Below, one piece after another: positions 8,465-31,605 of a stretch of 32,000 nucleotides of DNA. Position numbers and translations under genes: made by a program. A model generated the notes under the pieces. The model was not told the origin of the DNA and did no database searches. It was given only the letters and a program-made list of their open reading frames with translations. Position 1 is the first letter of the stretch, and the number at the start of each line of letters is the position of its first letter. Location of the stretch: the NCBI RefSeq assembly GCF_001455205.1, contig NZ_CP013341.1:2369303-2401302 (forward strand), in the 5' to 3' direction. This DNA is from Nitrosomonas ureae. Lineage in GTDB: Bacteria > Pseudomonadota > Gammaproteobacteria > Burkholderiales > Nitrosomonadaceae.

Positions 8465-8665
8465 TTATTCATTTGATGTTTCTTCTATAAACTCAATCTT
8501 ATAATTGTCTTGATTATCATCATTCACAACACCGTTAGCTTTAGCCTTATTCCAAGCATCTGTAATGTAGTCTTCTTTATTTAACATATCATCTGCCAGG
8601 CTCAGGGAGAATTGAGCTTTTACTTCTCCTGAAGATTTTTCAATAATCTGTACTTTTTTTAACAT
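8465..8665 (-). CDS. P-type small protein, paralog P3 (unassigned family)
   Basis: Tracked ORF 8465-8764. The internal ATG at 8665 (MLKKVQIIEKSSGE..) has a GGAAG RBS and aligns with paralogs P1 and P2: KxxIxxK .. KEDYxxxAWxxAxxxG[LV]V .. NYxxxF. Confidence 0.55.
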   Translation of the reverse strand: MLKKVQIIEKSSGEVKAQFSLSLADDMLNKEDYITDAWNKAKANGVVNDDNQDNYKIEFIEETSNE

Positions 8666-8717
8666 ACAAACACTTCCATAAATTGATATTCTGCTTACAA
8701 ATATCTCGAAATTAACA

Positions 8718-8869
8718 TCATAAAATCCCGTCGGGTACATTTTTTCCAGGTGGGGCACCTTCACGTATTAGATTTTCATAGGAAAGATCTTCCGGTGATA
8801 TTCTGTTAGGTGATGGTGGTTCCACACAAGGTGAATGATCATTTGGATTAATGTCAGTATTTTTTTCAT
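8718..8869 (-). CDS. A-type small acidic/proline-rich protein, paralog A3; the long frame needs a 1-nt shift in an A7 tract
   Basis: ATG 8869 lies 7 nt after GGAG and is followed by A7 (T-run 8860-8866 on the + strand). The zero frame gives 33 aa (stop 8768). With one extra A it reads MKKNTDINPNDHSPCVEPPSPNRISPEDLSYENLIREGAPPGKNVPDGIL (stop 8718). That product shares SPxxISxxDL[ST]xE..VPD with the 70-aa protein at 9611-9823. Confidence 0.3.
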
Positions 8870-8880
8870 AATCTTACTCC

Positions 8881-9174
8881 TTAATGTTCCGTGCCTGATG
8901 GAGGGCGGGGTGTTGAATTATTTCTTCCAGAGTCTTTGTTTATCTTTTCTGGTGGACTACTGGCATTTGAATCTTTCTTATCTATAGAATCTGTCTCGCA
9001 TGGATCTCCGCCATCTATTCTTTCATGATAATGACCGGATTCTAGTTTTTCGCATTTCTGCTTCTCATATAAACGATCTTTACTGTCATAGGATTGTGCT
9101 AAAACATGAGTTCCTGGAAACATAAATAAAGCAAAAACCAAGAAAATGATGGTTAAATCATTGACATAACGCAT
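8881..9174 (-). CDS. S-type small exported protein, paralog S3
   Basis: ATG 9174 (MRYVNDLTIIFLVFALFMFPGTHVLAQ|S) follows AGGAG. It has a signal-peptide-like N-terminus and a hydrophilic low-complexity mature part. It aligns with S1 (10282-10593). Confidence 0.6.
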   Translation of the reverse strand: MRYVNDLTIIFLVFALFMFPGTHVLAQSYDSKDRLYEKQKCEKLESGHYHERIDGGDPCETDSIDKKDSNASSPPEKINKDSGRNNSTPRPPSGTEH

Positions 9175-9292
9175 TTGAGCTCTCCTGAAAAGCAAAGATT
9201 GTCACTATGCAAAATTTCAATGGGAAGGTCTGTGCGAAAACCAACATTAGAAAATATAAACCGCTGAAGGGGGAAGTTAGAACAATGAATAA

Positions 9293-9499
9293 TTACCTGT
9301 CATATTGAGAGGTATTATCATCAACAAATTTCATAGAATAATTTGATCGATTGGATTCATCTACTAACCCGTTATCAACTGCATGATCCCAAGCTTCTGC
9401 GAAAAAATCTTCCTTTAAATCATTTTCAACCCGTTCAATTGGATATTCCGCAATTATTTGCTGTGATAATTTATCAGTAATTCTGATTTTATTAATTAT
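9293..9499 (-). pseudogene. P-type small protein, paralog P2; the initiator position is ATA (non-canonical start or inactivated copy)
   Basis: Not in the ORF track. The reverse strand reads (I)INKIRITDKLSQQIIAEYPIERVENDLKEDFFAEAWDHAVDNGLVDESNRSNYSMKFVDDNTSQYDR*. A GGAG lies 7 nt upstream of ATA 9499-9497, which aligns with the ATG of P1 and P3. The open frame has no ATG/GTG/TTG (upstream stop at 9518-9520). Confidence 0.45.
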
Positions 9500-9610
9500 A
9501 AAAAATCTCCACGCAGTTTAAGAAATGAATATTGGAAAATTTTTATAGCTGTGTATGGGCGTAACGTAACTCATCTAATAAAAAATAGCGGACGGAATTT
9601 CCGGTAGCAA

Positions 9611-9823
9611 TTATTCCACGGGATTATTTTTAATGTGACTCTCATCATCCGGAACAATCTTTTTTTGGAGCGCTTCTTCTGGTGTTAAATCTATCGTTGA
9701 GATGCCTGCTGGCGATTCCTCGTCGTCAGGATGCTCCTGTAATTCATCATAATCATTGTCGGAAAATTGCAAATTTTCGAATTTATACTTCTTTTTTAAT
9801 ATTGGAGGAGTGGACTGTGTCAT
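9611..9823 (-). CDS. A-type small acidic protein, paralog A2
   Basis: 70 aa, strongly acidic, no signal peptide (..DEESPAGISTIDLTPEEALQKKIVPDD..). AAGGA lies upstream. It sits immediately upstream of P2, in the same relative position as A3 to P3. Confidence 0.5.
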   Translation of the reverse strand: MTQSTPPILKKKYKFENLQFSDNDYDELQEHPDDEESPAGISTIDLTPEEALQKKIVPDDESHIKNNPVE

Positions 9824-9938
9824 AAATAACTATCCTTACATTAATAAATAGAATGGTAGAGAATCTGCGCTGTTTCCAATCTATAGGCAAACGATCGAGG
9901 GATTGGAAAAAAAACCAGGTGGAGCCGGTTTGTCATAG

Positions 9939-10187
9939 TTATTTTGATTCTGTAGGATCGATCTTTTCAGGGTCAATGTCCTCTTGAATTTCTACTCCGG
10001 CATCGTTCTTATCGTAATTTTGTTGATTAGTAACGCTATCTTTTTTAATGGGATGAATATCCTGCGCGGGTTTTGGTTTTAGCGAATCATCAACATTTTT
10101 CTGAATCTGAGATTCTTCCACGGCAAAGGCAGATACGCTAATAAATAAAAGCGCACGTATTAAACCATTAGCTAATAAATTAATCAT
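9939..10187 (-). CDS. Small exported hydrophilic protein (S2)
   Basis: 82 aa. Signal-peptide-like MINLLANGLIRALLFISVSAFA|VEE followed by a K/D/E/Q-rich low-complexity region; AAGGAA RBS. Confidence 0.5.
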   Translation of the reverse strand: MINLLANGLIRALLFISVSAFAVEESQIQKNVDDSLKPKPAQDIHPIKKDSVTNQQNYDKNDAGVEIQEDIDPEKIDPTESK

Positions 10188-10281
10188 GAGATGATTCCTT
10201 TGTTCTAAATAAATTCAAAATTCACTTGAAAAATATCTGCCTCTGCAATTTCGTTCTAATTACTAATCAAATGATAAGTAA

Positions 10282-10593
10282 TTAATAACCTGCTTCGGAG
10301 GGTACATCAGGATTGTGTAAGGGTGATTCAGAATTTTTTGCCGGCGGATGCACAATTCCATCCCCCCGTGGTACATTCTTGTCAAAATTTCCCTTGTTTT
10401 CTTCGGTTCTACCTCTTAAATCCGCATCTTCCTTTAGTTGATTAGTTCTGCCAGATTCAAATTTCCGAACATTTTGAGGTTCGTAAGTTTCTTTGCGATC
10501 AGTATCTGACTCTGACAATACATCAGTGCTTGGAAAAATGAATACCCCAAAAATTAGAACGAACCAAAATAGCTTGTTGTCATTATTCATCAT
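10282..10593 (-). CDS. S-type small exported protein, paralog S1
   Basis: ATG 10593 lies 5 nt after AAGGAG. MMNNDNKLFWFVLIFGVFIFPSTDVLSES.. aligns with S3 through the signal peptide and about 45 mature residues (..YEPQNVRKFESG vs ..YEKQKCEKLESG). Confidence 0.6.
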   Translation of the reverse strand: MMNNDNKLFWFVLIFGVFIFPSTDVLSESDTDRKETYEPQNVRKFESGRTNQLKEDADLRGRTEENKGNFDKNVPRGDGIVHPPAKNSESPLHNPDVPSEAGY

Positions 10594-10706
10594 CAATTCT
10601 CCTTATGAAAAATGAAATACCTTACTCGTGTTTATAATTAATTAAATCTGTCTTGGTGCGACCATAAACAGTAGAACCCTTCAAAATGAAGAGCCCTTTA
10701 AGAAGT

Positions 10707-10784
10707 CACTTTTTATGAGGTGGGGCTTTGCTTTTCTCTGAATCTTTTTTCTTGTCATTAGAACCAGCAGTAAATTTATTCATT
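10707..10784 (-). CDS. 25-aa lysine-rich peptide (MNKFTAGSNDKKKDSEKSKAPPHKK)
   Basis: ATG 10784 lies 6 nt after GGAG. It is too short for independent support. Confidence 0.25.
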
Positions 10785-11147
10785 TTTAACTCCTTGCATG
10801 ATGAAATGAAAGTTAAGAATAAATTTTATTAATGACACTTTCTGTGCGGCCTGTCACATAAAGAACTAAATTTCATGTCTTAGTCCGAGGATGAGTAATC
10901 TCAGATTCAGTAAGCGGCGGTGGAGTATCGAGGGGATCTTGTTTTGGTGGAACTTTCAGAGGCTGTTCAGGGAGCACGAATGGTGGAGGCGCAGGCGGTA
11001 TCGAAGATTCTGGATTAATTTGAGCAAGAAAATGATTCGAAATATACAAGTGCCTAGCCAGATATCCTCTAATTAGAAACTTTATTCTCGTTGAATGTTG
11101 TCGAAGGGGGATCGGCGCGTCTTCTCACACAATAAGAATAAGGCAAT

Positions 11148-11168
11148 AAAAAACCCGCCGAAGCGGGC
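11148..11168 (-). terminator. Rho-independent terminator downstream of the PRC-barrel gene
   Basis: The minus-strand RNA reads GCCCGC-UUCG-GCGGG followed by U6: a GC stem, a UUCG tetraloop and a U-tract, 46 nt after the stop at 11214. Confidence 0.8.
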
Positions 11169-11213
11169 TATATATTCCTTGTCATGCTCTGATTTAGAAG
11201 CGAGATCGTTTTA

Positions 11214-11621
11214 TTATCTCTTATCAGCGCCATAATAAGAATTTACAGTATGTTGCCACGAAGAATCAGCCATATTAGGCCAATGATCTTTATCGAATCC
11301 GGGAGCAGATTCTAGCTTTTCTTTATTAGCGTCCAGTGTAAAGCGTTTATTGGCGGTGTCCAATTTTAATGCACTCCATGGTACGGCAAAAAGTTTATCT
11401 CCCATTCCTAGAAAACCGCCGAATGAAAGTACTGCGTAACTTACTTCCCCCGTATTCATATCCAGCATGATCTCTTTGATATCACCCAAGTCTTCGTCCT
11501 GCAAATTATAAACATCATTGCCGAGCAGGGTGTTAGCTCCCATCAATTGGGGCCCTGGCCCACCAGAATTTGTATTTTTATACATACCTAATTCATCTTT
11601 ATCTATATAGCTCATATTCAT
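11214..11621 (-). CDS. PRC-barrel domain protein
   Basis: 135 aa. GEVSYAVLSFGGFLGMGDKLFAVPWSAL is a PRC-barrel signature. The second ATG at 11615 has better spacing to GGAG. Confidence 0.75.
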   Translation of the reverse strand: MNMSYIDKDELGMYKNTNSGGPGPQLMGANTLLGNDVYNLQDEDLGDIKEIMLDMNTGEVSYAVLSFGGFLGMGDKLFAVPWSALKLDTANKRFTLDANKEKLESAPGFDKDHWPNMADSSWQHTVNSYYGADKR

Positions 11622-11757
11622 CTCCGTTTAGTAATTGAATGAAACGGAATTATGAAGATAAAGAAAAAAACTATCTGTACGGCATCCCACAATATGTATA
11701 TGAAAGTGATAAAATCAGCCCCAGGGGGTAGAGGGGAAAATTTAATTATTCTCTGGA

Positions 11758-11943
11758 CTATCTAAAAACAAACTTCATTTCATAATCTGTTTCGTTTGTG
11801 GTTTCGACTAACCCTTCACTAACTGCATTGGCCCACGCTTTTGCGAAATAATCTTGTTTTGTAGAGCTATCTCTTAAATTAATTAAATACTGCGCTATGC
11901 AGTTGTGTGTTTCTTTTTCTAAAATTTGTATTTTTCTTTGCAT
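11758..11943 (-). CDS. P-type small protein, paralog P1
   Basis: ATG 11943 (MQRKIQILEKETHNCIAQYLINLRDSSTKQDYFAKAWANAVSEGLVETTNETDYEMKFVFR). It aligns with P2 and P3. Confidence 0.55.
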   Translation of the reverse strand: MQRKIQILEKETHNCIAQYLINLRDSSTKQDYFAKAWANAVSEGLVETTNETDYEMKFVFR

Positions 11944-12281
11944 AAGCAGTCTCTTCAAATTTTATTTATATAGTAGATTTGATGAATTTTCATAATGTAA
12001 CTCCTTCTCAACCAAAAAAAGATTCCACGATCTATTAGCAGCAATTTATACTCAGCTCGCAATCGAACAATGATAATGCACGAAGAGGAAATTTTGCATG
12101 AACGGCCAAGAAAGACTGAGTAAATTATGTTTCTGAATTGGGATGAGTAACAACTGCCTTCCAATAGTATTGGAATACTTTATTCAGAATAAGAAAATCT
12201 GTCTGCCAAGGCTTGAGTTTGTTTTCCTATTCTGATTTGCGCTAGATCGGTCAGCAATGGATTTCGGATGAGATTCTGGAT

Positions 12282-12794
12282 TTACGTTTTTTTAGAAGAA
12301 GCCTTATTTCTTGAATCTTTATGATCTTCTTTAAAGTGAATGACTTCTTTTGCCATTTCAGATCTATCAATTTCAGATTTTGTAAGCTTAGGAAACATGT
12401 TTTTTTCCTCTTCTTTAACATGGTGCTCAATATACTCACGCAATACAGTTACCTTTGCATCATAATGACTATCTTCAGCACTCATCGATTGAAGCTGGGA
12501 AATAAGTTCTTTTGCGCCAGCATGCTCCACATCTGCCTCGTCCATTAAATCATCGTCATCGATTGTTTCTCGTGCAGTGGGATAAACAATTGATTCTTCA
12601 GCTAAGGCATGTAAAGTCAATTCTTCGCAAATCTGCTTAACAATTTTTTCTTTTTTACTAGTGTTATTACTTTTATCTTTTAATTCTTCGAATTCATCAA
12701 ATAAATCCTTAACCTTAGCATGATCAGCTTTTAATAGCTTAATAATATCATCAGCTTCTGATTTACTTGAGTTTGTGTTTTTGTGTTGAGACAT
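12282..12794 (-). CDS. Hemerythrin-like (HHE cation-binding) domain protein
   Basis: ATG 12794 (MSQHK..). Spaced His/Glu helices: LLKADHAKVKDLFDEFE, LHALAEESIVYP, EHAGAKELISQL, EHHVKEEEKNMFP. Confidence 0.75.
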   Translation of the reverse strand: MSQHKNTNSSKSEADDIIKLLKADHAKVKDLFDEFEELKDKSNNTSKKEKIVKQICEELTLHALAEESIVYPTARETIDDDDLMDEADVEHAGAKELISQLQSMSAEDSHYDAKVTVLREYIEHHVKEEEKNMFPKLTKSEIDRSEMAKEVIHFKEDHKDSRNKASSKKT

Positions 12795-13057
12795 GATTTT
12801 ATTCCAATTGAAAGAAGGAATAATCATGATCTCTCTAAAGGAATATAAAGTCGGTGTGTTACCGCACTTTTAGAATAGTTCAAATTGCTCGGATTATAGA
12901 TAACTCAAGCAGAAGGATTGGAAGGATACGCCAGCGGGCGCTTTCAGGTTGAAGAATCGACGAGCAAGCCAAGAGACCCCAAAGTGTTGACGCCGGTCGA
13001 AAATTGACCAGGTAATCCACGTATTCTGCTTATTTCTTAAGCAGAGGTTAAGAAGAG

Positions 13058-15315: not shown

Positions 15316-16616
15316 GTTGAATAGATTCAGTTGGTTGTTGTTATGGTGAGTGATCATTTGCATCTCAGTATTTTTAAGTAATTGATCTAGGTTAGTTTTC
15401 TCGAAAAGAGTTAGGCTCAGGATTTGTAGGATTGTGTAAAGTGAAGTCTCGGTATTGAGTCGCTTTTTTACGATGGCAACCAAGACATAAACCGAGATGG
15501 CAATCCATATCTGTGTCTTGACTGCGTTTTCAGTGGTTCCGTAGAATTGCTTGATACGAAGATGTTGTTTGATCCACTTGAAGAATAGTTCGATCTGCCA
15601 GCGACAACGATAAAGCTGAGCGATGGTCAGTGCAGGTAAATCGAAGTTGTTGGTTAGAAATACCAGATGCTTGTCGTGTTCGGCATCATAGAACTTAATA
15701 CGTCGTAGGTGCTGCGGGTAATCCTTGCTGGCCTTCGTAGCGGTCAATGCAATGGTCTGATCGCATCGCAGTCCCGTGGATTTGTCCACTGAGTGAGAGT
15801 AGACACGGCGAAAAAGGAGACTGGATTTAGCGCGCGTTACAAAAAATGCTTGTGCTTGATGCATAGTGAACCAGCGAGCAAAGTCGGTAAAGCCCCGATC
15901 CATGATGTAAAAGCTGCCAGCTTCGGGGATCAGGAAATCGAGCACATTGACTTCGTGCATCTTGCCGTCGCTGATATGGATGAACGTTGGAATGTTGCCG
16001 CGTAGATCAAGCAGTGTATGCATCTTGACGGCAGCTTTGGTCTGACGAAAGCGCGCCCATGGAAAGACGCTCAAACACAGATCGATGGTCGTGGTATCGA
16101 GTGCATAGACTGTCTGTTCCAACTCCACCGCTAAGCTATCGCTGGAGTAAAGCTTTCTGGCGATCTGGATCAAGCTCATCGCGAAATCCATGTAGATGCG
16201 ACAATCGCGCTGCTCGTTGGCATCGGCCAACGTACTCTTGGCGATGTTGCCTCGTATGCCCAAGTGATAAAGCTTAGCTTGGTGAGCGCGCAGACAGGTT
16301 TCGATGTTGCGCAGACTCTCGCGGTAAGTCAGCTGCGCGAAAGCCATGCAAAGAAATTGATCGAGATGCGAAAGAGTCTTGGTGGGATATTTGGAAGGGT
16401 AACGCTGTACACAGCGGCGGAATGTGTGAAGGGGCAAGTAATCCATGAGTTGTGCGAATACCAATTTGCCTGAATGCATGATAAGAAGCCACGTAGGGAA
16501 ATCTCCAGTTTCGCAAAAAATTCACTTTCAAATCGGTGACACCCCCAAACATACCATTTCATTCTACAGATCAATCTGTTATACAATCATCTTGGGTAAA
16601 TTGCCGGACACTACTG
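15296..16616 (-). mobile_element. Intact IS4-family insertion sequence (1321 bp)
   Basis: Perfect 20-bp terminal IRs and a 9-bp TSD. Removing the element and one TSD copy restores the IS3 orfB frame (..QEITEYIEIFYNRQ..). Confidence 0.9.
15313..16479 (-). CDS. IS4-family DDE transposase (N-terminal DUF4372-like region)
   Basis: 388 aa. MHSGKLVFAQLMDYLPLHTFRRCV.., ALDTTTIDL, FYIMDRGFTDF and YRCRWQIELFFKWIKQHL are typical of the family. Confidence 0.9.
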   Translation of the reverse strand: MHSGKLVFAQLMDYLPLHTFRRCVQRYPSKYPTKTLSHLDQFLCMAFAQLTYRESLRNIETCLRAHQAKLYHLGIRGNIAKSTLADANEQRDCRIYMDFAMSLIQIARKLYSSDSLAVELEQTVYALDTTTIDLCLSVFPWARFRQTKAAVKMHTLLDLRGNIPTFIHISDGKMHEVNVLDFLIPEAGSFYIMDRGFTDFARWFTMHQAQAFFVTRAKSSLLFRRVYSHSVDKSTGLRCDQTIALTATKASKDYPQHLRRIKFYDAEHDKHLVFLTNNFDLPALTIAQLYRCRWQIELFFKWIKQHLRIKQFYGTTENAVKTQIWIAISVYVLVAIVKKRLNTETSLYTILQILSLTLFEKTNLDQLLKNTEMQMITHHNNNQLNLFN

Positions 16617-16625
16617 ACCGAATAT
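16597..16625. repeat. Right 20-bp IR of the IS4-family element (16597-16616) plus the second TSD copy (16617-16625)
   Basis: taaattgccggacactactg followed by accgaatat. Confidence 0.9.
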
Positions 16626-16727
16626 ATAGAAATATTCTATAACCGGCAGAGAAAACAGAAAAAGCTGGATTATTTTTCACCAGCACAATTTACGCAGCAA
16701 TACTATGCAAATTTGCTTGTTGCTTAA
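16617..16727 (+). pseudogene. IS3-family OrfB segment 3 (C-terminus)
   Basis: (TEY)IEIFYNRQRKQKKLDYFSPAQFTQQYYANLLVA* is a typical IS3 OrfB tail. Confidence 0.8.
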
Positions 16728-16758
16728 ACCGATGGACTCCATTTTTGACAGCACATAC

Positions 16759-16771
16759 ATGGACGCCCACT
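16759..16771. repeat. Subterminal IR of the IS110-family element (3' side)
   Basis: atggacgcccact is the reverse complement of 18159-18171. Confidence 0.7.
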
Positions 16772-17031
16772 TTCTGTCAAGCTTTCAGTCAATGATTTTG
16801 AGCAGGTAAAGATTGCTGCCATACATCCGGACTTTGTATGAGGCGCATTGCCCCTGCCCCTGATGGAATTTGCTGAGTAGCGCCTTATCACCTCAGCGTG
16901 CTCTATGCACTGTGTGCTGTTTAGGTTTAGCTACTCACGGTCTGACCAGTTTCGCCATCATTGTCATGATTGCCCGTGCAATCGGTTGAAATTTTTCTCC
17001 TTAAATCTGCTGCAGTGCTATCAATAAATTT

Positions 17032-18087
17032 CTATGCAACACCATAATCATGCTCGGCAGCAACTGATGTCGTAGCGCGATTATGGTGGAATGTTGTGCC
17101 TTGGGCGAGCAACGCCCAGATAATACGAGCATTTTTATTCGCTAGTGCAACAGCAGCGATATTCTTGTTGCGTCGAGCTATCAGTTTACGCAACCAGCTT
17201 TCTGGTTCTTCCTTATTTTCAGCAAAACGGATGACTGCTCTTGCTCCGTGAATCAGCAAAGTGCGCAGATAAGTGTCGCCACGTTTACTGATGCCGAGTA
17301 ATATCTGCTTGCCACCACTGGAGCACTGTTTTGGCACCAATCCAAACCATGCCGAAAGTTGCTTGCCGTTCTTGAACTCTGTGGCATTTCCAACTGTTGC
17401 AACAATGGCGCTCGCCGTAATCGGGCCAATACCGGGAATAGCTTCCAATCTTTGACTGGCTTCGTTCTCCTTGTGCCACAGCTTGATCTGCAATTCCAAC
17501 TCTTCTATTTGTCGACTTAGTTGTTTGAGATGATCATTCAACTGTTTCAGTAAATGACGCATTGATCCTGGTAAATCGTTTCCAGCATCTTCCAGAATAT
17601 CCGGCACCCGATTGATAATCGAACGGATCCCTTGTGGGATAACAATACCAAATTCAGAAAGCAGGCCGCGTATCTGATTTGCCTGTGCGGTTCTGGCTTT
17701 GACGAAACCTTGCCTGGCACGATGCACTGACAAAATGGCTTGTTGCTCAATATTCTTGATCGATACAAAACGCATGTTGGGTCGGCTTACCGCTTCGCAG
17801 ATCGCTTCCGCATCTGCCATATCATGCTTGTTGGTCTTGACGTAGGGTTTGACAAATTGGGGTGACATGAGCTTGACGGTGTGCCCAAATTCGCACAGCT
17901 TTCTCGCCCAATGGTGTGAACTACCGCAGGCTTCCATCCCAATCAGGCAAGGCTCCAGATTGGCAAAAAACTTTGACATCTCGCTACGGCGCAACTGCTT
18001 GCGCAGCAACGCCTTACCATACATATCCACGCCATGAATCTGAAATACTTCTTTTGCCAAATCAATGCCTATCGTTGTAATCTTCAT
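17032..18087 (-). CDS. IS110-family (DEDD) transposase/recombinase
   Basis: 351 aa. MKITTIGIDLAKEVFQIHGVD..CLIGMEACGSSHHWARKL..NKHDMADAEAICEA plus the C-terminal IPGIGPITASAIVATVGN..FGLVPKQCSSGGK..GISKRGDTYLR. GGAG lies 8 nt upstream. Confidence 0.9.
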   Translation of the reverse strand: MKITTIGIDLAKEVFQIHGVDMYGKALLRKQLRRSEMSKFFANLEPCLIGMEACGSSHHWARKLCEFGHTVKLMSPQFVKPYVKTNKHDMADAEAICEAVSRPNMRFVSIKNIEQQAILSVHRARQGFVKARTAQANQIRGLLSEFGIVIPQGIRSIINRVPDILEDAGNDLPGSMRHLLKQLNDHLKQLSRQIEELELQIKLWHKENEASQRLEAIPGIGPITASAIVATVGNATEFKNGKQLSAWFGLVPKQCSSGGKQILLGISKRGDTYLRTLLIHGARAVIRFAENKEEPESWLRKLIARRNKNIAAVALANKNARIIWALLAQGTTFHHNRATTSVAAEHDYGVA

Positions 18088-18185: not shown

Positions 18186-18510
18186 CTTGACCATGTCACT
18201 TTTTGTGCGGTTCATGTCGTCGCCTTTTTCGCCAGCAAATTGCAGGCAATAAAGGAAGTCAAAATTCAGCCGAAGTAAGCAAAGATGCAGTCGTGCCGGT
18301 ATCTGTAACCATCATTCATGAAGCCATCAGGAAATCGTATTTCGATGCGATTTGAAAATGTTAAATGGTCACAAGTAGCAACCTGTGTTTAAGCAAAGCA
18401 AACTGCGTTTGCTACGGCCACAAAGCGCAACGCTTGAATGTTGTTCCAGCTACCTGAATAGATGCTATTAATTGTTGTTGAATTGTTACTAACAAGCTTT
18501 AAGGATAAAT
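18186..18510 (+). pseudogene. Inovirus copy A: degenerate 3' remnant of the zot/pI gene
   Basis: Nucleotide similarity to 21690-21996 (copy B) and 29200-29524 (copy C), for example gatgcagtcgtgccggtatctg and ctgcgtttgctacgg.caaagcgcaacgcttgaat. In-frame stops are present (..NCVCYGHKAQRLNVVPAT*). Confidence 0.7.
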
Positions 18511-18514
18511 AGAA

Positions 18515-19030
18515 ATGAAATTGATAAATTCTGAATCCGTTGAACGAACTGATGAACTTGTTGGTATGGTTTGTTATTCCATGTTTAATCATCTGCAACG
18601 TTTGGCAAATTTGTATACGCCTGAATTTGATTTTGAAGCGGCTATAAAAATTCAGGAAAATCCATTCCAACTCCAGGCAGCAGCGTTTTTTCAAAATTTA
18701 CGCCTTGCCGCTCTGGAGAACAATTTTTGTACTTTGCTTTTGTATTGTTATTATGAGTCCCATGATTTTTATCAATTCAAGCGGTTAACACCATATCTGA
18801 CATCAAGGAATCACCTGCTTTGTAATAAGATACTTAATCCCTATCATGGTATTGAGGATGAAATCGTTCTGGATTTTTTTACTCGATTTGTTATTAAATT
18901 CAATAGAAATTTAAATTTTGAGCACTTCATTAAAGCCAAAGTAAATGTGGTTATGCGCACGTTTAAAATTCATGAAGAGCAGATCACGTGCCTGTTCCCA
19001 CAACGTCAGCCTTTAGCAACGCTTCATTAA
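18515..19030 (+). CDS. Hypothetical 171-aa protein in the post-zot slot of phage copy A
   Basis: ATG 18515 follows AAGGA right after the zot-remnant stop. No recognisable motif. Unrelated to the ORFs in the same slot in copies B and C. Confidence 0.5.
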   Translation: MKLINSESVERTDELVGMVCYSMFNHLQRLANLYTPEFDFEAAIKIQENPFQLQAAAFFQNLRLAALENNFCTLLLYCYYESHDFYQFKRLTPYLTSRNHLLCNKILNPYHGIEDEIVLDFFTRFVIKFNRNLNFEHFIKAKVNVVMRTFKIHEEQITCLFPQRQPLATLH

Positions 19031-19051
19031 CCCGCATCAAGCCCAACGGTT

Positions 19052-19099
19052 GCGCCGCCGACCGGCGCTTAGAGCATGCCGCTAAAAGCGGCATGCTCT
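19052..19099. repeat. Two adjacent perfect hairpins (6-bp and 12-bp stems)
   Basis: gcgccg-ccgac-cggcgc (19052-19068) and agagcatgccgc-taaaa-gcggcatgctct (19071-19099). They lie downstream of ORF 18515-19030. Neither strand has a U-tract. Confidence 0.4.
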
Positions 19100-19198
19100 A
19101 CGATTCCTGACTCAATTTACTTTTAATCTGAAAATACCCTTTTTGCCGAACGGGCTTATTAGATTGTAGATGAATCAACAACAATTCATCTAATCAAC

Positions 19199-19522
19199 TT
19201 AGTTGAATAGATTAGGATCAATTATTAATTTATTTATAACTTTCTTGACACCTTCAACTGAATGCGCAATATTGTGCACTTTTTCTTCTTCGGCTTTTGA
19301 TTTCACCGCCCCAGTAAGTACAACAATTCCGTTGTTATCTGTGTCAACTTTAATATGTAAAGAATCAATATCCTTTGCGACAAGTATTTTAGATTTTATT
19401 TGAGTAGTAATAGCCGAATCTTTAACAAACTCGCCAACACTCGAATTTTCCGCAGAAACTACTGCAGGAACAAAGAATATGCTTATTAAAAGCATACCAG
19501 TAATTAATTTTAAATTTTTCAT
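19199..19522 (-). CDS. BON-domain (OsmY-like) periplasmic protein
   Basis: 107 aa. Signal peptide MKNLKLITGMLLISIFFVPAVVSA, then DSAITTQIKSKIL..IKVDTDNNGIVVLTGAVKSKAEEEKVHNIAHSVEGVKKVINKL, a BON domain pattern. Confidence 0.8.
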   Translation of the reverse strand: MKNLKLITGMLLISIFFVPAVVSAENSSVGEFVKDSAITTQIKSKILVAKDIDSLHIKVDTDNNGIVVLTGAVKSKAEEEKVHNIAHSVEGVKKVINKLIIDPNLFN

Positions 19523-19599: not shown

Positions 19600-20227
19600 A
19601 TCTGCGTTTTTGTTAACAGAGCTTAAGAACCGCGGTATCAACCAGTGCAAAACTGGCTTACGACAAGCGCCAACGGCAACTGTCAAGCACGGTTGGCACG
19701 GAGATCACAGCTACCAATATGACAACCCCGGGCAGCTTAAAAAATCATTTCTCCGGATAGCAGCTTCCTAAATTACACCTACGATGCCGCACACCGATTG
19801 ACCGGTATTGCTGATAATCTCGGTAACCGCGTGCAGTATATGCTGGACAATATGGGCAATCGTACCCACGAGCAACGGTTTGATCCGCTTAATAATGTGA
19901 CGAAAACCCAGCAACGGGAATATGATGCGCAAGGTAACCTGAAACAAATCACCGATCCGTTGCTGCATACCACCGTTTATCAATTTGATGTACGCAACCG
20001 TCTGAAGCAAATCACCGATGCGGCCAGTGGCATAGCCGGTTAAACGCTGGATGTGCTGGATCAAATTACTCAAGCATCCGATCCGCGCGATATCGATACC
20101 GGGATACACTACCAATGGTTTTGGCGACGTCATGCAGGAAATATCTGCCGATCGCGGCACCATTGACTCCACTTACGATAGCGCCAGAAATCTCAAGACG
20201 GTGATTGATGCACGCGGCGGCAAACGT
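19600..20227 (+). pseudogene. Rhs/YD-repeat protein internal fragment, degenerate
   Basis: YD repeats spread over three frames: ..SYQYDNPGQLKK / IISPDSSFLNYTYDAAHRLTGIADNLGNRVQYMLDNMGNRT..REYDAQGNLKQITDP..YQFDVRNRLKQITD / ..GYTTNGFGDVMQEISADRGTIDSTYDSARNLKTVIDARGGKR. There is a stop at 20041 and frameshifts near 19739-19744 and 20100. Confidence 0.7.
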
Positions 20228-20880: not shown

Positions 20881-21035
20881 TCGCAAGCGCAAGGATACTT
20901 CAGCGCTATACCTTACTTTGCTTTGCAAACCTTAAACCTGGCAGGATTCGGGCAGGGCTTGGGCATCATCATGGGCGCAATTACATTTCGCATGACCTTC
21001 GTACTGCTGCCTAAACTGGGAGTGATACCGAAATG
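20881..21035 (+). pseudogene. pVI-like (DUF2523) C-terminal remnant (copy B)
   Basis: Matches copy C from 28398 (..QGYFSAIPYFALQTLNLAGFGQGLGIIMGAITFRMTFVLLPKLGVIPK). It is fused to the pIII remnant by the deletion. Confidence 0.75.
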
Positions 21036-21996
21036 GTCATCATACTGACGGCAACGCCTGGCTGCGGAAAAACTAATCACGCCGTATGGAGCCACATTAA
21101 ACCGGCGGTGGAAAATGAACGAATAGTTTACGTTTGCGGCATTCCGGATTTAAAGCTGATGCACATCAAATTATTAATTGCCAAGCTTAACACCTGGGCG
21201 GAACGCACACCCATAGACCCCATTGATCCCGAAGGTAAGCAAAAGCTCAACAATATAACCGAAGGCAGTCTCATTGTAGTGGATGAAGCCGCTTATCCGT
21301 GGCCGGCCATCGATCTGAAAGATCCTCCAGAGTACATCAAGTATCTTTCCCAGCATAGAAAGCACGGGCTTGATTTCCTGGTAATCACGCAATCGCCCAA
21401 GTTCGTGCATCCGTTCGTACTGGAAAACGCAGATAGGCATATTCACCTGAGCCAGGAATGGTCAGGTAATAAGCAATATGAATGGTCGGAATACTGCGAA
21501 CCCGAAACTGAAAACCAACCGGGCCAATGCAGTCAAGAAGCCGTACAAACTGGAAAAGAAAGCGTTCGAATTGTATTACTCAGCCAGCCTGCATGTAGAA
21601 AAACCGAAACGCGCGATTCCCAAAATGGTTTATGCGGCAATTTTCCTATTATTCGCAGCTCCGGCAATGGCCATGATCACTTATGGGCGCATTACTGACC
21701 GGTTAGCCGATCCGAATTGCAGAAAATAAAGAAACTGAAAAATTAGCCGAAGTAATCGAAACACAAAATGATGCAGTCGTGCCGGTATCTGCAACCCTCA
21801 CCAATCAACCCATCAGAGAATCACTTTCCATGTTATCTGAAAATGTTGACTGGTCACAGTTGCCGCTTGTGTTTCAAGCAAAGCTAACTGCGTTTGCTAC
21901 GGTCATAAAGCGCAACGCTTGAATATTGTTCCGGATACCTGCAATGCTGCCATTAATTATGGTTGGATTGTGACTAACAAGATTTAGAGGAAAACA
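21033..21996 (+). pseudogene. Zot/pI-like assembly ATPase, frameshifted (copy B)
   Basis: The first ~165 aa are nearly identical to copy C (GTPGCGKTNHAVW..LIVVDEAAYPW). A 2-nt gap relative to C near 21497 shifts the frame; ORF 21478-21729 carries the continuation. The 3' part is degenerate but ends ..NCVCYGHKAQRLNIVPDTCNAAINYGWIVTNKI*. Confidence 0.8.
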
Positions 21997-21997
21997 A

Positions 21998-22360
21998 ATG
22001 AAAACAGTAAATTATGAATATGGCATTTACAGTTTGAACCTAAGCCAATCCGAAATTATTATGCTCGCATCAGGCTATGTTCCTTACGTTGCTTTTGAAA
22101 CTGATCCGGAAATTCCTGATGATGAAACACTCTGGATTTACTATGATCCGAAAGAAAATGACATCATTCCACATATTTATCCTTTCCCGTGCCGAATTAT
22201 TTCTTATGTGAGCTTTCCGCATCAGACCATTCTCACGCTTAAGCCAGATGAATTTAATGCTGAGCTTATGGAAATGATAGAGGAATTTAAAACGAAAATG
22301 GAAAGGGCGGGTGAATGCGTGCATTCTAATGCATCACTGCCGCAGTACGCTTTAACGTAA
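21998..22360 (+). CDS. Hypothetical 120-aa acidic protein in the post-zot slot of phage copy B
   Basis: ATG 21998 follows AGAGGAAAA, 2 nt after the zot stop. No recognisable motif. Confidence 0.5.
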   Translation: MKTVNYEYGIYSLNLSQSEIIMLASGYVPYVAFETDPEIPDDETLWIYYDPKENDIIPHIYPFPCRIISYVSFPHQTILTLKPDEFNAELMEMIEEFKTKMERAGECVHSNASLPQYALT

Positions 22361-22520
22361 ATTACTTTTTTCCGCTATATGAAAGCTATTGATTTTATTT
22401 TTTATAAATTACTTCTGCCAACTTATATTTTATTTATTGTATTTCTGAGAAGTAATAATTTTATTTCGCCCAAACGCTTTCAGTGTTTACTATTCGATAT
22501 ACCCGAAAGAATGACAAAAC

Positions 22521-22616
22521 GCCTTTAAACCCCGACTAGTAGCAAATCTTGAAAGGGGGGCCTCGAGGTTTTGCCAAAGGCAAAACGTAGGGGTTCTCAA
22601 GTTTGCGTAAACGGGT
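22521..22616 (+). repeat. Conserved ~95-bp phage-end block, copy B (contains the imperfect hairpin 22548-22601)
   Basis: About 90% identical to 29825-29919. Similarity between the copies ends at about 22616 / 29919. Confidence 0.8.
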
Positions 22617-22706
22617 CTATTAACGGAACATTTTTTGCCGTGCCATACAAATTCATCTTCTGTTACCCTGATGACTTAAAATACTATGGTAATTTCAGTG
22701 ACAATA

Positions 22707-23498
22707 TTATTGGCTTATATTTGTCGAATTACGGGGTAGGTTATTATTTACTTTCCACTCTTCCAAATAATCATATAATGCACGGAATTCATTAGGCTTA
22801 TTTTCTCTAAGCTTGTAAAGCAGTGGATCAAGTAGCATCTTTTGATCTGCATACCAATGACCATTGTCAATAGCTCTTAATATTAATTTTAAACCATCCT
22901 CATAATTCTCTAAAGATATCTTTACTAGTCCTAAATTAAAGCGAAAAATTGAATTTTCTGGAAAGCGCTCTACTAAATCGGCAAAAATATTTTCAGCATT
23001 CTTCATATTGCTTGGTATACGAGAATTCATTAATGCCAATGCTTTTAAATTGAGTACATCTACAAAGTCTGGTCGATTAGCCAATAAAATATCAGACAAA
23101 TCAATTGCTTGTTGAATTCTGCTAAATCTAATTAATAAATGCGTGATATTTCTTAGTAGTTGCTCATTCCAATTATTGTTTGAAACTTCTTTAGTATACT
23201 GTAGAGCAAAATTACCTAATTTTTCGATTTGATTCATACTCATTAAATCTTTTAATGACTCCACAGGAGTATTCGTCGATAAAAGATCGATTAATGTTTC
23301 TGAAAGTAATATGTATGATTTTATGGATTCTTTTGTATCACGAAGCTCAAAAGTTGCTCCAAGAAGTTTGAAATTACTTAATGATTGAAGCACTCGCTTA
23401 ACTTCTTTGTGGAAAATTAAAAGACATACACTAAGTAAAAGTAGCCAAAAACCTGATTCTATAAGTTTTAATGTTATGATTTCTGACATATTTATCAT
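22707..23498 (-). CDS. Membrane-anchored helical-repeat (TPR-like) protein
   Basis: 263 aa. One N-terminal TM (GFWLLLLSVCLLIF). The C-terminal half has TPR-like repeats (..VDVLNLKALALMN.., AENIFADLVERFPENSIFRFNLGLVKISLENYEDGLKLILRAID). The gene is very AT-rich. Confidence 0.5.
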   Translation of the reverse strand: MINMSEIITLKLIESGFWLLLLSVCLLIFHKEVKRVLQSLSNFKLLGATFELRDTKESIKSYILLSETLIDLLSTNTPVESLKDLMSMNQIEKLGNFALQYTKEVSNNNWNEQLLRNITHLLIRFSRIQQAIDLSDILLANRPDFVDVLNLKALALMNSRIPSNMKNAENIFADLVERFPENSIFRFNLGLVKISLENYEDGLKLILRAIDNGHWYADQKMLLDPLLYKLRENKPNEFRALYDYLEEWKVNNNLPRNSTNISQ

Positions 23499-23615
23499 TT
23501 CAATGTAAGGCTAAAGTCTATCATATTGCCTATGTTTCCTTGTTTTTCAATTTTAACTAAACGGTTAATATTTTTTTCTTTCTGCCGCTAGGCTGCAGAT
23601 TATCTCTTTAATTTT

Positions 23616-24697: not shown

Positions 24698-25709
24698 ATG
24701 ATGAATCTGATTCCTGTGTTTGTCGACTATCTGACCATCCGTCAAGTGCATGACGGCGGCAAGCTGCCAGTTATTAACGGGGGCAGAGTGCTGAGAATAG
24801 ATTCCGATGGTGAGATTGAATACGCCGTGGACACTCGGCAAGGTTTGGAAGGTAGTTTTGATAGTCGGGTGGAAGTGCGTTGCGATGGTCATCAGGTCGA
24901 ATTCTCCGGCAATATATCCCGCTATGGGCGACAAGATAATTTATTTGGTTTCACTTTTGCCGACAGCATCGAGCGGATCAATGATCTGCTCAAAAGTTTA
25001 GGATTGCCACCTTTTACCGCTGGCAAATTGTATAAGTTCGCTGATTCGGGCTGGACGTGGACAGGTGCCAGAGTCAGCCGGATAGACATAACCTGTAATT
25101 ATGTCACCGGCTCCATGATCGACTCCGAAGCATTACTCCGCAATATGGCAGGTCACCACATTGGCCGACAAAAGGGCTCATTATCCGTCAATGGCGCTAC
25201 CGTTGAATATGGACGAGGTTCCAAATACGTTTACGGCAAACTCTACTGCAAAACCACTGAACTAAAAAAACACCGCTCTAAAAAAATCAGGCCAGCATGT
25301 TACCGATGAAGTCATCGACTTCTGCCAACACTTAGGCGTAATACGAGAAGAGTTTACTCTGAAATCACGCTTTCTTCTACAAAATGGCTTGGCCTATCTA
25401 GGGGCTATCACTGATGCATTATTAATCGAGGTTTATATGAACAGAACCCAATTACAACGACTGGAAAACGTCAAATACGAAAATTTCAATGATCTGCCGC
25501 CATGGTTGCGAGCAACTTACGTGAGCTGGAAATATGGTTATCCGATTGATCTTAAACGTTCTGCTTTTTATAACCACAGAAAAGCTTTACTTGCTTACGG
25601 CATTGATATCTCCATCCCCAACAACGTGCAAACCATGCCAATCAAAGTAAAAACAATCGAACTGGCTGCGTTCACCGCGCCTGATTGGTACATCAAGAAA
25701 TACGCATAA
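24698..25709 (+). pseudogene. Filamentous-phage gene II/X-type (Phage_CRI-like) rolling-circle replication initiator, split by a +1 frame change in an A7 tract
   Basis: ORF 24698-25309 (VFVDYLTIRQVHDGGKLPVINGGRVLRIDSDGEIEY..SRIDITCNY..) continues in frame 0 from 25266 to 25709 (..SGQHVTDEVIDFCQHLGVIREEFTLKSRF..). The frames switch within 25264-25286, which holds two A7 runs. The joined length of about 335 aa fits the family. Confidence 0.75.
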
Positions 25710-28260: not shown

Positions 28261-28553
28261 TGTTCAATTTACTGATCATACCGCTCTGCGCTTTCCTGAC
28301 ATCGAGCATCGGCTTTCTGGCAGTTCGCGCCTTGTCGGGTCTAGGTATTGGCGTTTTGAGCTTCACCGCCATCAATGTGGCGCTCGATGCGCTGTTCTCG
28401 CAAGCGCAAGGATACTTTAGCGCTATACCTTACTTTGCTTTGCAAACCTTAAACCTTGCCGGATTTGGCCAGGGCTTGGGCATCATCATGGGCGCAATCA
28501 CATTCCGCATGACTTTCGTACTGTTGCCTAAACTGGGAGTGATACCAAAATGA
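28260..28553 (+). CDS. pVI-like minor coat protein (DUF2523-type)
   Basis: 97 aa with three hydrophobic helices. ATG overlaps the pIII stop (TAATG), and its stop overlaps the zot ATG (ATGA). Confidence 0.7.
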   Translation: MFNLLIIPLCAFLTSSIGFLAVRALSGLGIGVLSFTAINVALDALFSQAQGYFSAIPYFALQTLNLAGFGQGLGIIMGAITFRMTFVLLPKLGVIPK

Positions 28554-29524
28554 TCATCATACTGACGGCAACGCCTGGCTGCGGAAAAACCAATCACGCC
28601 GTATGGAGCCACATTAAACCGGCGGTTGAAAATGAACGAATCGTCTATGTTTGCGGCATTCCGGATTTAAAGCTGATGCACATCAAGCTATCGATAGCCA
28701 AGCTTAACACCTGGGCAGAACGCACACCGATAGATGAAACTGAACCGGAAGGAAAGCAAAAGCTTAACAACATAACCGAAGGCAGTCTCATTGTTGTGGA
28801 TGAAGCCGCTTATCCGTGGCCGGCCATCGATCTGAAAGACCCTCCGGAATACATCAAATATCTTTCCCAACATAGAAAGCACGGGCTTGATTTCCTGGTG
28901 ATCACGCAATCGCCCAAGTTCGTGCATCCGTTCGTACTGGAAAACGCAGATAGGCATATTCACCTGAGCCAGGAATGGTCTGGTAATAAACAATATGAAT
29001 GGTCGGAATACTGCGCTAACCCGAAACTCAAAACCAATCGTCAAAATGCAGTCAAGAAGCCGTACAAACTGGAAAAGAAAGCATTTGAATTGTATTACTC
29101 AGCCAGCCTGCATGTAGAAAAACCAAAACGAGCAATTCCTAAAATGGTTTATGCAGCAATATTCCTATTATTCGCAGTTCCGGCAATGGCAATGATCACT
29201 TATGGGCGCATTACTGACCGTCTAGCCGATCCGATGCAAGAAATTGCCTCAAATGAAGAGGAAAAAACCAACAAATCGGAGCAGGGCGACGATATGCCAC
29301 CAGGAAGCGTTATTCCGGTAACTCAGCCTGTCATTGCATTGCCAAGTACAAAAGAATCGCTTTCAATGCTATCTGACGCGGTCGACTGGTCGCAGGTTGC
29401 CGCGTGCGTTTCCAGCAAATCGAATTGCATCTGTTATGGCCATCAGGCGCAACGATTGAATATTGTTCCGGATACTTGTAATGCGGCTATTAATTACGGG
29501 TGGATTGCCACAAATAAACTTTAG
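28550..29524 (+). CDS. Zot/pI-like phage assembly ATPase
   Basis: 324 aa. Walker A TATPGCGKT, Walker B LIVVDEA, mid-protein TM (MVYAAIFLLFAVPAMAMI), Cys-containing C-terminal domain. Confidence 0.9.
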   Translation: MIIILTATPGCGKTNHAVWSHIKPAVENERIVYVCGIPDLKLMHIKLSIAKLNTWAERTPIDETEPEGKQKLNNITEGSLIVVDEAAYPWPAIDLKDPPEYIKYLSQHRKHGLDFLVITQSPKFVHPFVLENADRHIHLSQEWSGNKQYEWSEYCANPKLKTNRQNAVKKPYKLEKKAFELYYSASLHVEKPKRAIPKMVYAAIFLLFAVPAMAMITYGRITDRLADPMQEIASNEEEKTNKSEQGDDMPPGSVIPVTQPVIALPSTKESLSMLSDAVDWSQVAACVSSKSNCICYGHQAQRLNIVPDTCNAAINYGWIATNKL

Positions 29525-29594
29525 AGGAGGGATATTAATACCGTTATTAAGTTAATAAGATTTAAAACTAAATTATTTTTTGGGAAGGGCAATT

Positions 29595-29810
29595 ATGAAA
29601 GCTGCGATTTTAATCCGGAGTAAACTAAATGATCAATTTGTCGCTTGTTATCCTTACTCAACTATTCCAGAAAAGGAAAGAAGTACCGTACATAACGATT
29701 TTAATTTCTGTTGGGAAATAGCTTTAAACAATAAGCTTGTGAAAGCTGGAACTGAGGAGCAACATTATTTTTCTTTTGTTGATCTGGATGATCCGAACTA
29801 TAAAAATTAA
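29595..29810 (+). CDS. Hypothetical 71-aa protein in the post-zot slot of phage copy C
   Basis: Tracked ORF 29580-29810; ATG at 29595 (MKAAILIRSKL..). Unrelated to the slot ORFs of copies A and B. Confidence 0.4.
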   Translation: MKAAILIRSKLNDQFVACYPYSTIPEKERSTVHNDFNFCWEIALNNKLVKAGTEEQHYFSFVDLDDPNYKN

Positions 29811-29824
29811 TCAAAAAATAAAAA

Positions 29825-29919
29825 GCCTTTAAACCCTGACTAGTAGCAAATCTTGAAAGGAGGCTCCGAGGCTTTGCCAAAGGCAAAATGTAGGAGTTCT
29901 CAAGTTTGCGTAAACGGGT
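29825..29919 (+). repeat. Conserved ~95-bp phage-end block, copy C (hairpin 29852-29904)
   Basis: gcctttaaaccctgactagtagcaaatcttgaaaggaggctccgaggctttgccaaaggcaaaatgtaggagttctcaagtttgcgtaaacgggt matches 22521-22616. Confidence 0.8.
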
Positions 29920-30198
29920 ATGTTCCTGTTTTTTGTTTTGCCAAACCACGAACCCTTTTCTTCCCTCTCCAATACCAAGCATCTCATAAATGGTTGCCGA
30001 CGATTACGAAGGATATACACCCTAAAATAGGCATTCTGTTTAATCCTAAATGTAAAGATTTATCTTGACTTACTCATTCTTTAAAATAATTTAAATTACA
30101 AGATACAATTACCAAAATAATAATTAATTATGATTCGTGCCATTAGAATTAGAACTGATACTAGAAGTGGCCTCACTTGATTGGACTAATATATCTTA

Positions 30199-31605
30199 AT
30201 GAAACCCGCTATAGCGCATGTTAGTGAATTTATTTTTAAATTGGTAAATTCTATTCCGTGGCTTTTCCCTAATTGGCTAACTGAACGTGCAAGTTATTAT
30301 TCTAGCGATGAATTTAAAAAACATGAAAATGATAATAATTTAATTTTAACTGGAAGTTTTTTGGAGGGTGATTTTTCTTGGAAAGCGGTTGGAGTTGTTA
30401 TTCGTATCGATCATCAAGAACTGGAATTGATTCATAAGTGGATGAAAAGAAAAACTCCTGCAGGGAGCTACGATCCGAAGAGAGATTCTGATAGTTTTTC
30501 AACTAAATACACTGACTTAGGTCGGCATCGTTCACTTGGATGGATTTCATTTGGAAATGCTAAATTTTTCCAAAACCTTGCAATAATTGAATCGATCGAA
30601 ACAATATGTAAATCTTGTTATATTACATTCGATCGATTGCCGAATGGATTCACATATTTGTCTTTATATTTTTTATTATCAAGTGAGGCTACGTCACGAA
30701 TCCATAATACAAATCTTCGCGATGTTGAATCATATTTTTATTTTCAATCTTTCAATCCTTTTTCTAAGCATTTTAAAGTTCTTATACTTAATAGAAGAAA
30801 TCAAGTAATTAAAGAACATATAAAAGAAATATTAAATACCATTTTTAACGATGTCAGATTAGCTACAATTTCTATTCTCAATACATGGAATATTAAAAAA
30901 GATCTAGATGAAATAATTACAGTTGCTGATTTTTACCGTGATTCTGACGCGCCATATTTTAAGTCATTTGATGATCAAAAAGATCAAAATGTAGATATTA
31001 TTGATTCTAGGTCAAACTTTGTATTATTTGATAGAAATGACCACTTTTACGATGCAAAAATTTGTAATGATTCTAGTGAAAGCTATTGTGAAGTTCAAAA
31101 TGATGAGGATATTGATGTAGATGTTTTTTTTATAAAAAGCCAATTGAAAGAAACTTTCGACAAATGGGATGATTTTCCAAATTGTGGATTGACTATTTCG
31201 GATTCACATTTATTTTTATCTTTACTCCTGGATTGCCATAAGCAATATAAAAAAATAGCTGAAAACGCGAATTCTGCAATACTTCAATATGATGATGATC
31301 TTGAAGTTAGATATAAAGTTTTGTTTAATTCATTAATAAAGCTTGATGCTCTGGATGAGAATATTATTGCCGTGGAGAAATATATAAGTTTTGGATGTAT
31401 TCGTAAATATCAAGCAAGAGTCGAGATGATAATTGAGCATCAAAAAAAGATAGTGCAAGAGCTTAGATCATCTATTGATAAACGTTGTAAAAGCGGAGCT
31501 GCTGAATTACAAATAAAAAGCATTAAATTTCATCGCTGCTACTCCCGATTATTTACAATTCTTATTTTTATACAAATATTTTTAGCAGCTTTTGCTATTC
31601 TCTAA
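30199..31605 (+). CDS. 468-aa orphan protein with a C-terminal TM tail anchor
   Basis: Long uninterrupted ORF in ~30% GC DNA. No motif recognised. C-terminal RLFTILIFIQIFLAAFAIL. Confidence 0.55.
   Translation: MKPAIAHVSEFIFKLVNSIPWLFPNWLTERASYYSSDEFKKHENDNNLILTGSFLEGDFSWKAVGVVIRIDHQELELIHKWMKRKTPAGSYDPKRDSDSFSTKYTDLGRHRSLGWISFGNAKFFQNLAIIESIETICKSCYITFDRLPNGFTYLSLYFLLSSEATSRIHNTNLRDVESYFYFQSFNPFSKHFKVLILNRRNQVIKEHIKEILNTIFNDVRLATISILNTWNIKKDLDEIITVADFYRDSDAPYFKSFDDQKDQNVDIIDSRSNFVLFDRNDHFYDAKICNDSSESYCEVQNDEDIDVDVFFIKSQLKETFDKWDDFPNCGLTISDSHLFLSLLLDCHKQYKKIAENANSAILQYDDDLEVRYKVLFNSLIKLDALDENIIAVEKYISFGCIRKYQARVEMIIEHQKKIVQELRSSIDKRCKSGAAELQIKSIKFHRCYSRLFTILIFIQIFLAAFAIL

Follow-up and report, generated by a model that had tools for sequence, protein, structure and literature searches.

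The site directly downstream of zot in a lineage of Nitrosomonas filamentous phages is very likely an accessory-gene hotspot, or phage hypervariable region. The 32,000-nt stretch of the Nitrosomonas ureae chromosome analysed here (the window) contains three inovirus prophage copies, of which C is near-complete and A and B are degraded, and the zot 3' end of each is followed by a different gene. Judged on their sequences, these genes (ORFs A, B and C) are genuine, lineage-restricted protein genes with no relation to one another. The slot would extend from the zot stop codon to a conserved structured non-coding element, a 65-nt hairpin in copies B and C and a GC-rich double hairpin in copy A and most relatives. 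Its flanks and a survey of relatives support the preliminary description of this position as a moron slot, i.e. a bounded, hypervariable accessory slot placed directly after zot.

Prophage copies in the window

Copy C, at about 23.6-29.9 kb, has the full inovirus gene order: repressor, gII, single-strand binding protein, coat protein, pIII-like protein, pVI and zot. The gII gene corresponds to Phage_CRI plus G2P_X_C, and homologues of pVI match DUF2523. Compared with two relatives, L013 and L001 (loci recovered in the survey are referred to by such numbers), one additional A in the A-run at about 25279-25286 splits gII into two frames (24698-25309 and 25389-25709); this may reflect a true frameshift, a site prone to slippage or a mistake in sequencing. 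Copy B begins within pIII, and copy A amounts to about 250 nt of the zot 3' end beside an IS110-family transposase (17032-18087, reverse strand). Three zot 3' ends are indeed present, as expected from the initial count of three phage copies, but A and B are relics and even C has a frameshifted replication gene.

The loci recovered with the zot protein query all belong to Nitrosomonas genomes, MAGs or viral contigs, and a blastn comparison of copy C with INPHARED phages gave no match. The truncated pIII of copy B adjoins an RHS-repeat fragment (19798-20172; Pfam 5e-12). Between copies A and B lies a BON-domain gene (19199-19522, reverse strand), an orthologue of which is found directly 5' of an ORF C relic at locus L038.

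The zot flank and the left border of the slot

The only intact zot in the window is that of copy C (28550-29524, forward strand), the left flank of its slot. Its product belongs to the Zot/pI family of assembly ATPases, with matches to Pfam PF05707 (1e-18; 67.9 bits against a gathering cut-off of 20.3) and to the PHROG Zot-like family (4e-53). In copy B zot is a pseudogene (21033-21987, forward strand; stop codon 21985-21987), broken into split ORFs by at least two frame changes and sharing 93-100% identity with copy C in its 5' part and 75-85% in its 3' part. Copy A retains a 3' remnant, defined by alignment and tblastn (18250-18502, forward strand; stop codon 18500-18502), with a 1-nt deletion and in-frame stops. 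Repeat search and alignment agree that the zot 3' end is kept in all three copies (18374-18506, 21859-21991 and 29396-29528), with 75-80% identity when copy B is taken as the reference. The tail motif "aacaag" previously assigned to all copies does not hold for copy C, the actual tail of which is aaataaactttag.

The left border of the slot is the zot stop codon, often with an overlapping ribosome-binding site. Between copy C and locus L011, for example, identity is at least 90% through zot to about position 29460 and then falls below 50%. In copy B, the GAGGA ribosome-binding site of ORF B overlaps and follows the zot stop, and the ATG is located 10 nt past the stop. The copy C junction (29525-29594, forward strand) contains a vestigial ribosome-binding site, GAGGAGGG, which overlaps the zot stop and has no ORF start behind it; the same type of junction, TA[AG]AGGAG, precedes unrelated ORFs in relatives. 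Among 40 unique junctions, 17 have an unrelated forward ORF beginning 5-14 nt past the zot stop, and in 15 of these 17 an AGG, GAGG or GGAG motif lies at or overlaps the stop, while the motif is mostly absent from junctions with reverse-strand cargo. This arrangement suggests that forward cargo genes dock on the ribosome-binding site overlapping the zot stop, and would be translated along with the morphogenesis operon. A consensus scan found no sigma-70-like promoter upstream of ORF B or in the zot 3' end of the decayed copy B.

Two further observations concern this flank. A metagenome protein of 149 aa (P0033) consists of the zot C-terminal motif fused to an ORF B homologue reduced to its C-terminal half, and looks like a deletion spanning the zot-cargo junction. 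The phage right end reads '...CACCC' (window 30010-30021; L039 6400-6420; L010 7490-7510), and in two other genomes this end joins a short zot 3' remnant starting at about zot residue 297-303, which may hint that the zot 3' end of a resident copy is where new phage copies insert.

Cargo genes of the three copies

The three ORFs were confirmed at the positions originally given, all on the forward strand: ORF A (171 aa, ALQ51688.1) at 18515-19030 in copy A, ORF B (120 aa, acidic with a pI of 4.4, ALQ51694.1) at 21998-22360 in copy B, and ORF C (71 aa, ALQ51704.1) at 29595-29810 in copy C. All are annotated in GenBank as hypothetical proteins. Their homologues come from Nitrosomonas throughout, with 17 for ORF A (52-100% identity) and six for ORF C (72-93% identity); those of ORF B share 62-87% identity, and just 11 representatives of this family turned up in a set of 1.84 billion clustered proteins. 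The dN/dS ratio is 0.09 for ORF A (a single unsaturated pair, L028 vs L032), 0.11-0.27 for ORF B, and 0.22-0.35 for ORF C against the window copy, with some C pairs reaching 0.97. Codon comparisons thus indicate that families A and B are under purifying selection, and family C less clearly so.

These data bear on whether the slot is an ordinary non-coding spacer in which ORFs A, B and C are chance open frames. The region is AT-rich, in some relatives the first 550 nt or so past zot contain no long ORF, and none of the three ORFs has a known domain, all of which would suit a spacer. Nevertheless, this explanation is almost certainly wrong: homologues share 52-93% amino-acid identity, synonymous changes exceed non-synonymous ones in the window and close pairs, the start codon and ribosome-binding site are conserved, and the calculated probability of a 120-codon open frame arising by chance at the local base composition is about 3e-4. 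With conserved homologues for all three ORFs and dN/dS of 0.09-0.35 in the window and close pairs, the concern raised in the preliminary description that the ORFs might be spurious is refuted.

The initial observation that the three ORFs share no similarity also stands. Profile-profile comparison with hhalign gave probabilities of 0.6-0.9% among ORFs A, B and C, and nucleotide identity between the cassettes is below 35%, against 75-88% for the flanks. The predicted folds of A and B differ as well, ORF B being modelled as a beta-barrel plus helices (AF2, pLDDT 70) and ORF A as all-helical (pLDDT 65). Since hhalign probabilities stay under 1% and the predicted folds of A and B differ, the three proteins are considered unrelated. 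Under strict diversifying selection, A, B and C could instead be very fast-evolving homologues descended from one post-zot ancestor, with which their shared position and comparable small size would agree. That reading is scarcely more credible than the spacer, given the hhalign values below 1%, the beta-barrel plus helices of B as opposed to the all-helical A, conservative evolution within each family, and the existence of other alleles that are clearly unrelated (RES, HicAB, AAA ATPase), some of them on the opposite strand. Diversifying selection, proposed earlier for this position, is not shown: A and B evolve under purifying selection, dN/dS in C ranges from 0.22 to 0.97, and the variation consists of whole-gene replacement.

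The copy B cassette does contain ORF B, but not ORF B alone as first described. Between it and the conserved block is a second cassette gene of 49 codons (22379-22528, forward strand), the 3' end of which enters the block. It encodes a predicted single-pass membrane protein with one hydrophobic helix, falls below the usual ORF size cut-off, and is conserved, with pN/pS of about 0.4. Homologues occur in L018, L019, L020 and L009, in the last of which it is the sole gene, directly after zot.

Variable content at a fixed position in relatives

The proposed survey of related phages for further alleles in this slot was fruitful. A total of 59 related zot ends, pooled from loci recovered with zot or cargo queries, fell into 27 clusters of downstream sequence representing about 20 gene families. 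In the three window copies and at the 59 related zot ends alike, the variable segment occupies a fixed position directly 3' of zot, and non-homologous cargo lies between conserved flanks with sharp identity breakpoints. Since about 20 alleles circulate, the presence of three of them side by side in one genome, to which the preliminary description attached much importance, carries little weight.

Each family from the window keeps to this position. ORF B homologues immediately follow zot, or what remains of its 3' end, at every locus examined, and those of ORF C lie, at all loci examined, between the block and a preceding zot or zot remnant. ORF A homologues in L025-L027 lie directly 3' of an intact zot; shorter relatives of 164 aa occur where zot has been lost, and L032-L034 among them still have the right-border element typical of copy A (type 2, see below) after the cargo. 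Cargo is not obligatory, since L014 and L001 have no long ORF in about 550 nt after zot.

Toxin-antitoxin and anti-phage alleles (RES, HicA/HicB-like, AriAB-like and AbiGi) were found among the relatives, in line with the earlier expectation that such slots carry toxin or defence genes. Inside the slot are a RES-domain protein (4e-14), HicA (9e-18) with a HicB-like partner, and, in N. supralitoralis, a 537-aa AriAB/PARIS-like ATPase (2e-25) flanked by an ORF B homologue and the block. AbiGi (4e-14) in L035 lies just past the block, outside the slot proper. Cargo remains intact beside zot fragments in window copies A and B and in L016-L022, L038 and L039; this retention in relics is partly a matter of ascertainment, because the loci were found by zot or cargo queries.

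It might be supposed that the cargo genes are non-orthologous replacements for one needed phage function, e.g. a secretin adaptor or a late regulator. The ribosome-binding site overlapping the zot stop couples the gene tightly to zot, and in Ff phages gene I is followed by gene IV, the secretin gene, in the corresponding position. However, the alleles include toxins, defence ATPases and reverse-strand genes, some phages have just a 49-aa ORF or no ORF here, the GC content of the cargo is foreign, and cargo is intact in relics no longer able to assemble. A shared needed function is therefore improbable.

Right border elements

The conserved block was reported to resume after the cargo in copies B and C, and this was borne out: the two type-1 blocks (22516-22621 in copy B and 29820-29924 in copy C, both forward strand) are 87-93% identical, the latter, which forms the right border of copy C, comprising repeat families D6 and D8. 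Their core (22542-22606 and 29846-29909) is a 65-nt imperfect hairpin of 24 pairs, 11 of them with compensatory changes, which is kept in 11 phage copies. Folded as single-stranded DNA, the copy B block has a free energy of -17.4 kcal/mol (z = -3.6). The cassette was thus rightly described as bounded in B and C, but not in these copies only, as copy A is bounded too, by a different element. This type-2 element (about 19044-19160, forward strand; blastn and alignment) comprises two GC-rich hairpins and a conserved tail of about 60 nt, and blastn matches to it follow the cargo in more than 40 related loci. Its stems covary, the second being CCCC/GGGG or CCGC/GCGG, and it is missing from copies B and C. 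An Rfam scan of the whole window gave no family match, both structured elements included.

Relics end just past the structured elements, beside host genes (L016, L038), which places these elements near the prophage right end. They may be a packaging signal, the complementary-strand origin or part of attP. Integron-like site-specific exchange of cassettes via the hairpin was considered and rejected, since each phage has a single hairpin instead of one for every cassette.

The location near the prophage end bears on another possible main source of the cargo diversity, the pick-up of adjacent DNA by imprecise excision at that end, which has been proposed for ctxAB. In keeping with it, the slot adjoins the right end, relics stop just past the structured element beside host genes (L016, L038), and cassette GC (0.30-0.35, against 0.46 for zot) is foreign. 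This route is nonetheless unlikely to be the main one: the cargo lies inside the conserved structured element and not outside it, A, B and C are unlike ordinary Nitrosomonas chromosomal genes, and one cargo family is found on diverged zot backbones while the cargo differs between backbones that are nearly identical.

Whole-gene replacement with sharp breakpoints at the conserved flanks is the signature of recombination or horizontal transfer. For the hotspot, the mosaic identity profiles suggest that whole genes are exchanged, with homologous recombination as the most probable route, acting through the conserved flanks that co-resident or co-infecting relatives share.

Beyond the block there is a second variable stretch of low GC content (0.30), located in copy B between the block and a conserved 77-aa gene (22622-23615). 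It includes a gene for a 263-aa TPR protein (22707-23498, reverse strand; GC 0.30), and the corresponding stretch after the copy C block contains a gene for a 468-aa protein (30199-31605, forward strand; GC 0.30) with no family matches. Other genes occupy this stretch in relatives, e.g. that for AbiGi in L035.

Integration by XerCD at dif found no support. No dif-like site was detected in the window, where a scan allowing up to 3 mismatches did not find the N. europaea-type dif, the 77-aa flank gene gave no XafT or DUF3653 match, and no attachment-site direct repeats surround the L004 prophage.

Possible functions of the cargo proteins

Domain scans of ORFs A, B and C against Pfam, PHROGs, PADLOC and NCBIfam gave no match, and sequence-profile searches against the PDB yielded nothing meaningful. 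None of the three is recognisable as a toxin-antitoxin or anti-phage system, and a literature search on the three protein accessions found no paper. A Foldseek search with ORF A produced no match (best E 1.1).

The model of ORF B (pLDDT 70, built from a 6-sequence alignment) resembles PDB entry 3iuw (E 2e-3; TM 0.70 by target and 0.48 by query) and many models of phage ASCH/DUF3850 proteins (Foldseek probability about 1.0; E 8e-4 to 1e-2; TM at most 0.70 by target length and 0.45-0.5 by query length). ORF B may tentatively be assigned an ASCH/PUA-like barrel fold; no ASCH or DUF3850 match appeared at the sequence level in Pfam, NCBIfam or PHROG, and on this account, together with moderate model confidence, the similarity is taken as a lead only. 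Two other candidates for ORF B were rejected. The canonical c-di-GMP motifs of PilZ domains are RxxxR and (D/N)xSxxG; both are absent from ORF B, and its fold matches to PilZ are weak (probability 0.6-0.84, TM 0.42-0.5). A type II toxin-antitoxin pair formed by ORF B and the 49-aa ORF was discarded as neither has a domain match and the genes occur apart, L009 carrying the 49-aa ORF without ORF B, and L006 and L023 carrying ORF B without the 49-aa ORF.

As toxin and defence genes occur in the same position in relatives, the best guess is that A, B or C, taken individually, has a putative role in conflict between mobile elements, such as superinfection exclusion, abortive infection, defence or counter-defence; the chances of this fall somewhat short of even. 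A more specific reading, which is doubtful, would regard A, B, C and the 49-aa ORF as new phage-conflict effectors kept under selection after prophage decay, acting as superinfection-exclusion, anti-defence or minimal defence proteins. ORF B would then be a small acidic protein of the PUA/ASCH-like kind that binds nucleic acid or a partner protein from host or phage. If this were so, the Nitrosomonas inovirus slot would be a compact reservoir of new conflict genes in ammonia oxidisers.

Comparison with other inoviruses

The classic case of cargo in this position is reportedly that of Waldor and Mekalanos (1996), with ctxAB following zot in CTXphi. Like the Nitrosomonas cargo, ctxAB lies immediately after zot at the prophage right end and has an atypical base composition; its absence from related pre-CTX phages may be compared with the variability of the Nitrosomonas cargo. 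The product of ctxAB is a secreted toxin of known function directed at the host, whereas ORFs A, B and C are predicted small cytoplasmic proteins with no evident signal peptide. The location of ctxAB after zot is also noted in a recent study of Vibrio inoviruses (PMC12715192).

That study described hypervariable regions (pHVRs) with a mean length of 1.9 kb between zot and xafT in Vibrio CTX-I inoviruses; these regions encode PARIS, OLD, Abi and RM systems and persist where the prophage has decayed to a relic (PMC12715192, 2025). The Nitrosomonas slot shares with them the position directly 3' of zot, non-homologous content among syntenic relatives, systems of the PARIS, OLD, Abi or TA type, retention in relics and tandem prophage arrays. 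The two differ in the far flank, which is xafT with XerCD integration at dif in CTX-I and a 77-aa gene with no xafT or dif-like site detected in Nitrosomonas; the xafT/DUF3653 flank and XerCD integration at a dif-like attP that define the CTX-I subtype were accordingly not found at the Nitrosomonas slot. Unlike in CTX-I, a conserved structured DNA element divides the variable region in two, and the host is a betaproteobacterial ammonia oxidiser.

Filamentous Vibrio prophages were reported to have one accessory hotspot each, for which homologous recombination between identical flanks was proposed (PMC11630473, 2024). Common features are a single variable locus near the prophage border and a content of mostly unannotated genes with some TA, PARIS or RM systems, whereas the Vibrio filamentous and tailless elements belong to another phage lineage and host, and their flanking core genes vary between phage clusters (PMC11630473). 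Pseudomonas Pf prophages have 1-10 accessory moron ORFs at their borders (PMC7549136), and a global inovirus survey listed Nitrosomonas among the hosts and found TA and superinfection-exclusion genes in inoviruses (Roux et al. 2019; PMC6813254). In these systems, as here, accessory ORFs lie at the border, TA genes are common and about half of the ORFs have no predictable function; Pf phages, however, have their own integrase, and their cargo is beside int or orf89, not beside zot as in Nitrosomonas.

The hotspot phenomenon has therefore already been published for other inoviruses (PMC12715192, PMC11630473), and Nitrosomonas is a new example of it. No new principle is revealed; the inovirus hypervariable region after zot is extended from Vibrio and Pseudomonas to phages of ammonia-oxidising Nitrosomonas, bacteria of agricultural and environmental importance whose phages have barely been studied. 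This analysis places the cassette borders precisely and identifies two alternative structured elements at the right border, as well as a ribosome-binding site at the zot stop on which cargo would dock. It is useful chiefly for its catalogue of about 20 cargo families, most without known function, as reasonable candidates for new defence, anti-defence or exclusion genes.

Other features of the window

A cluster of insertion sequences at 13-18 kb comprises one IS3-type, two IS110-type and one DDE_Tnp_1-type element. Within it, at about 16000-17000, GC skew flips from positive to negative, which may indicate the replication terminus or no more than foreign DNA. Upstream of the cluster is a low-GC island (0.35-0.39) at 8000-13000, in which a hemerythrin-domain gene is located at 12282-12827 on the reverse strand.
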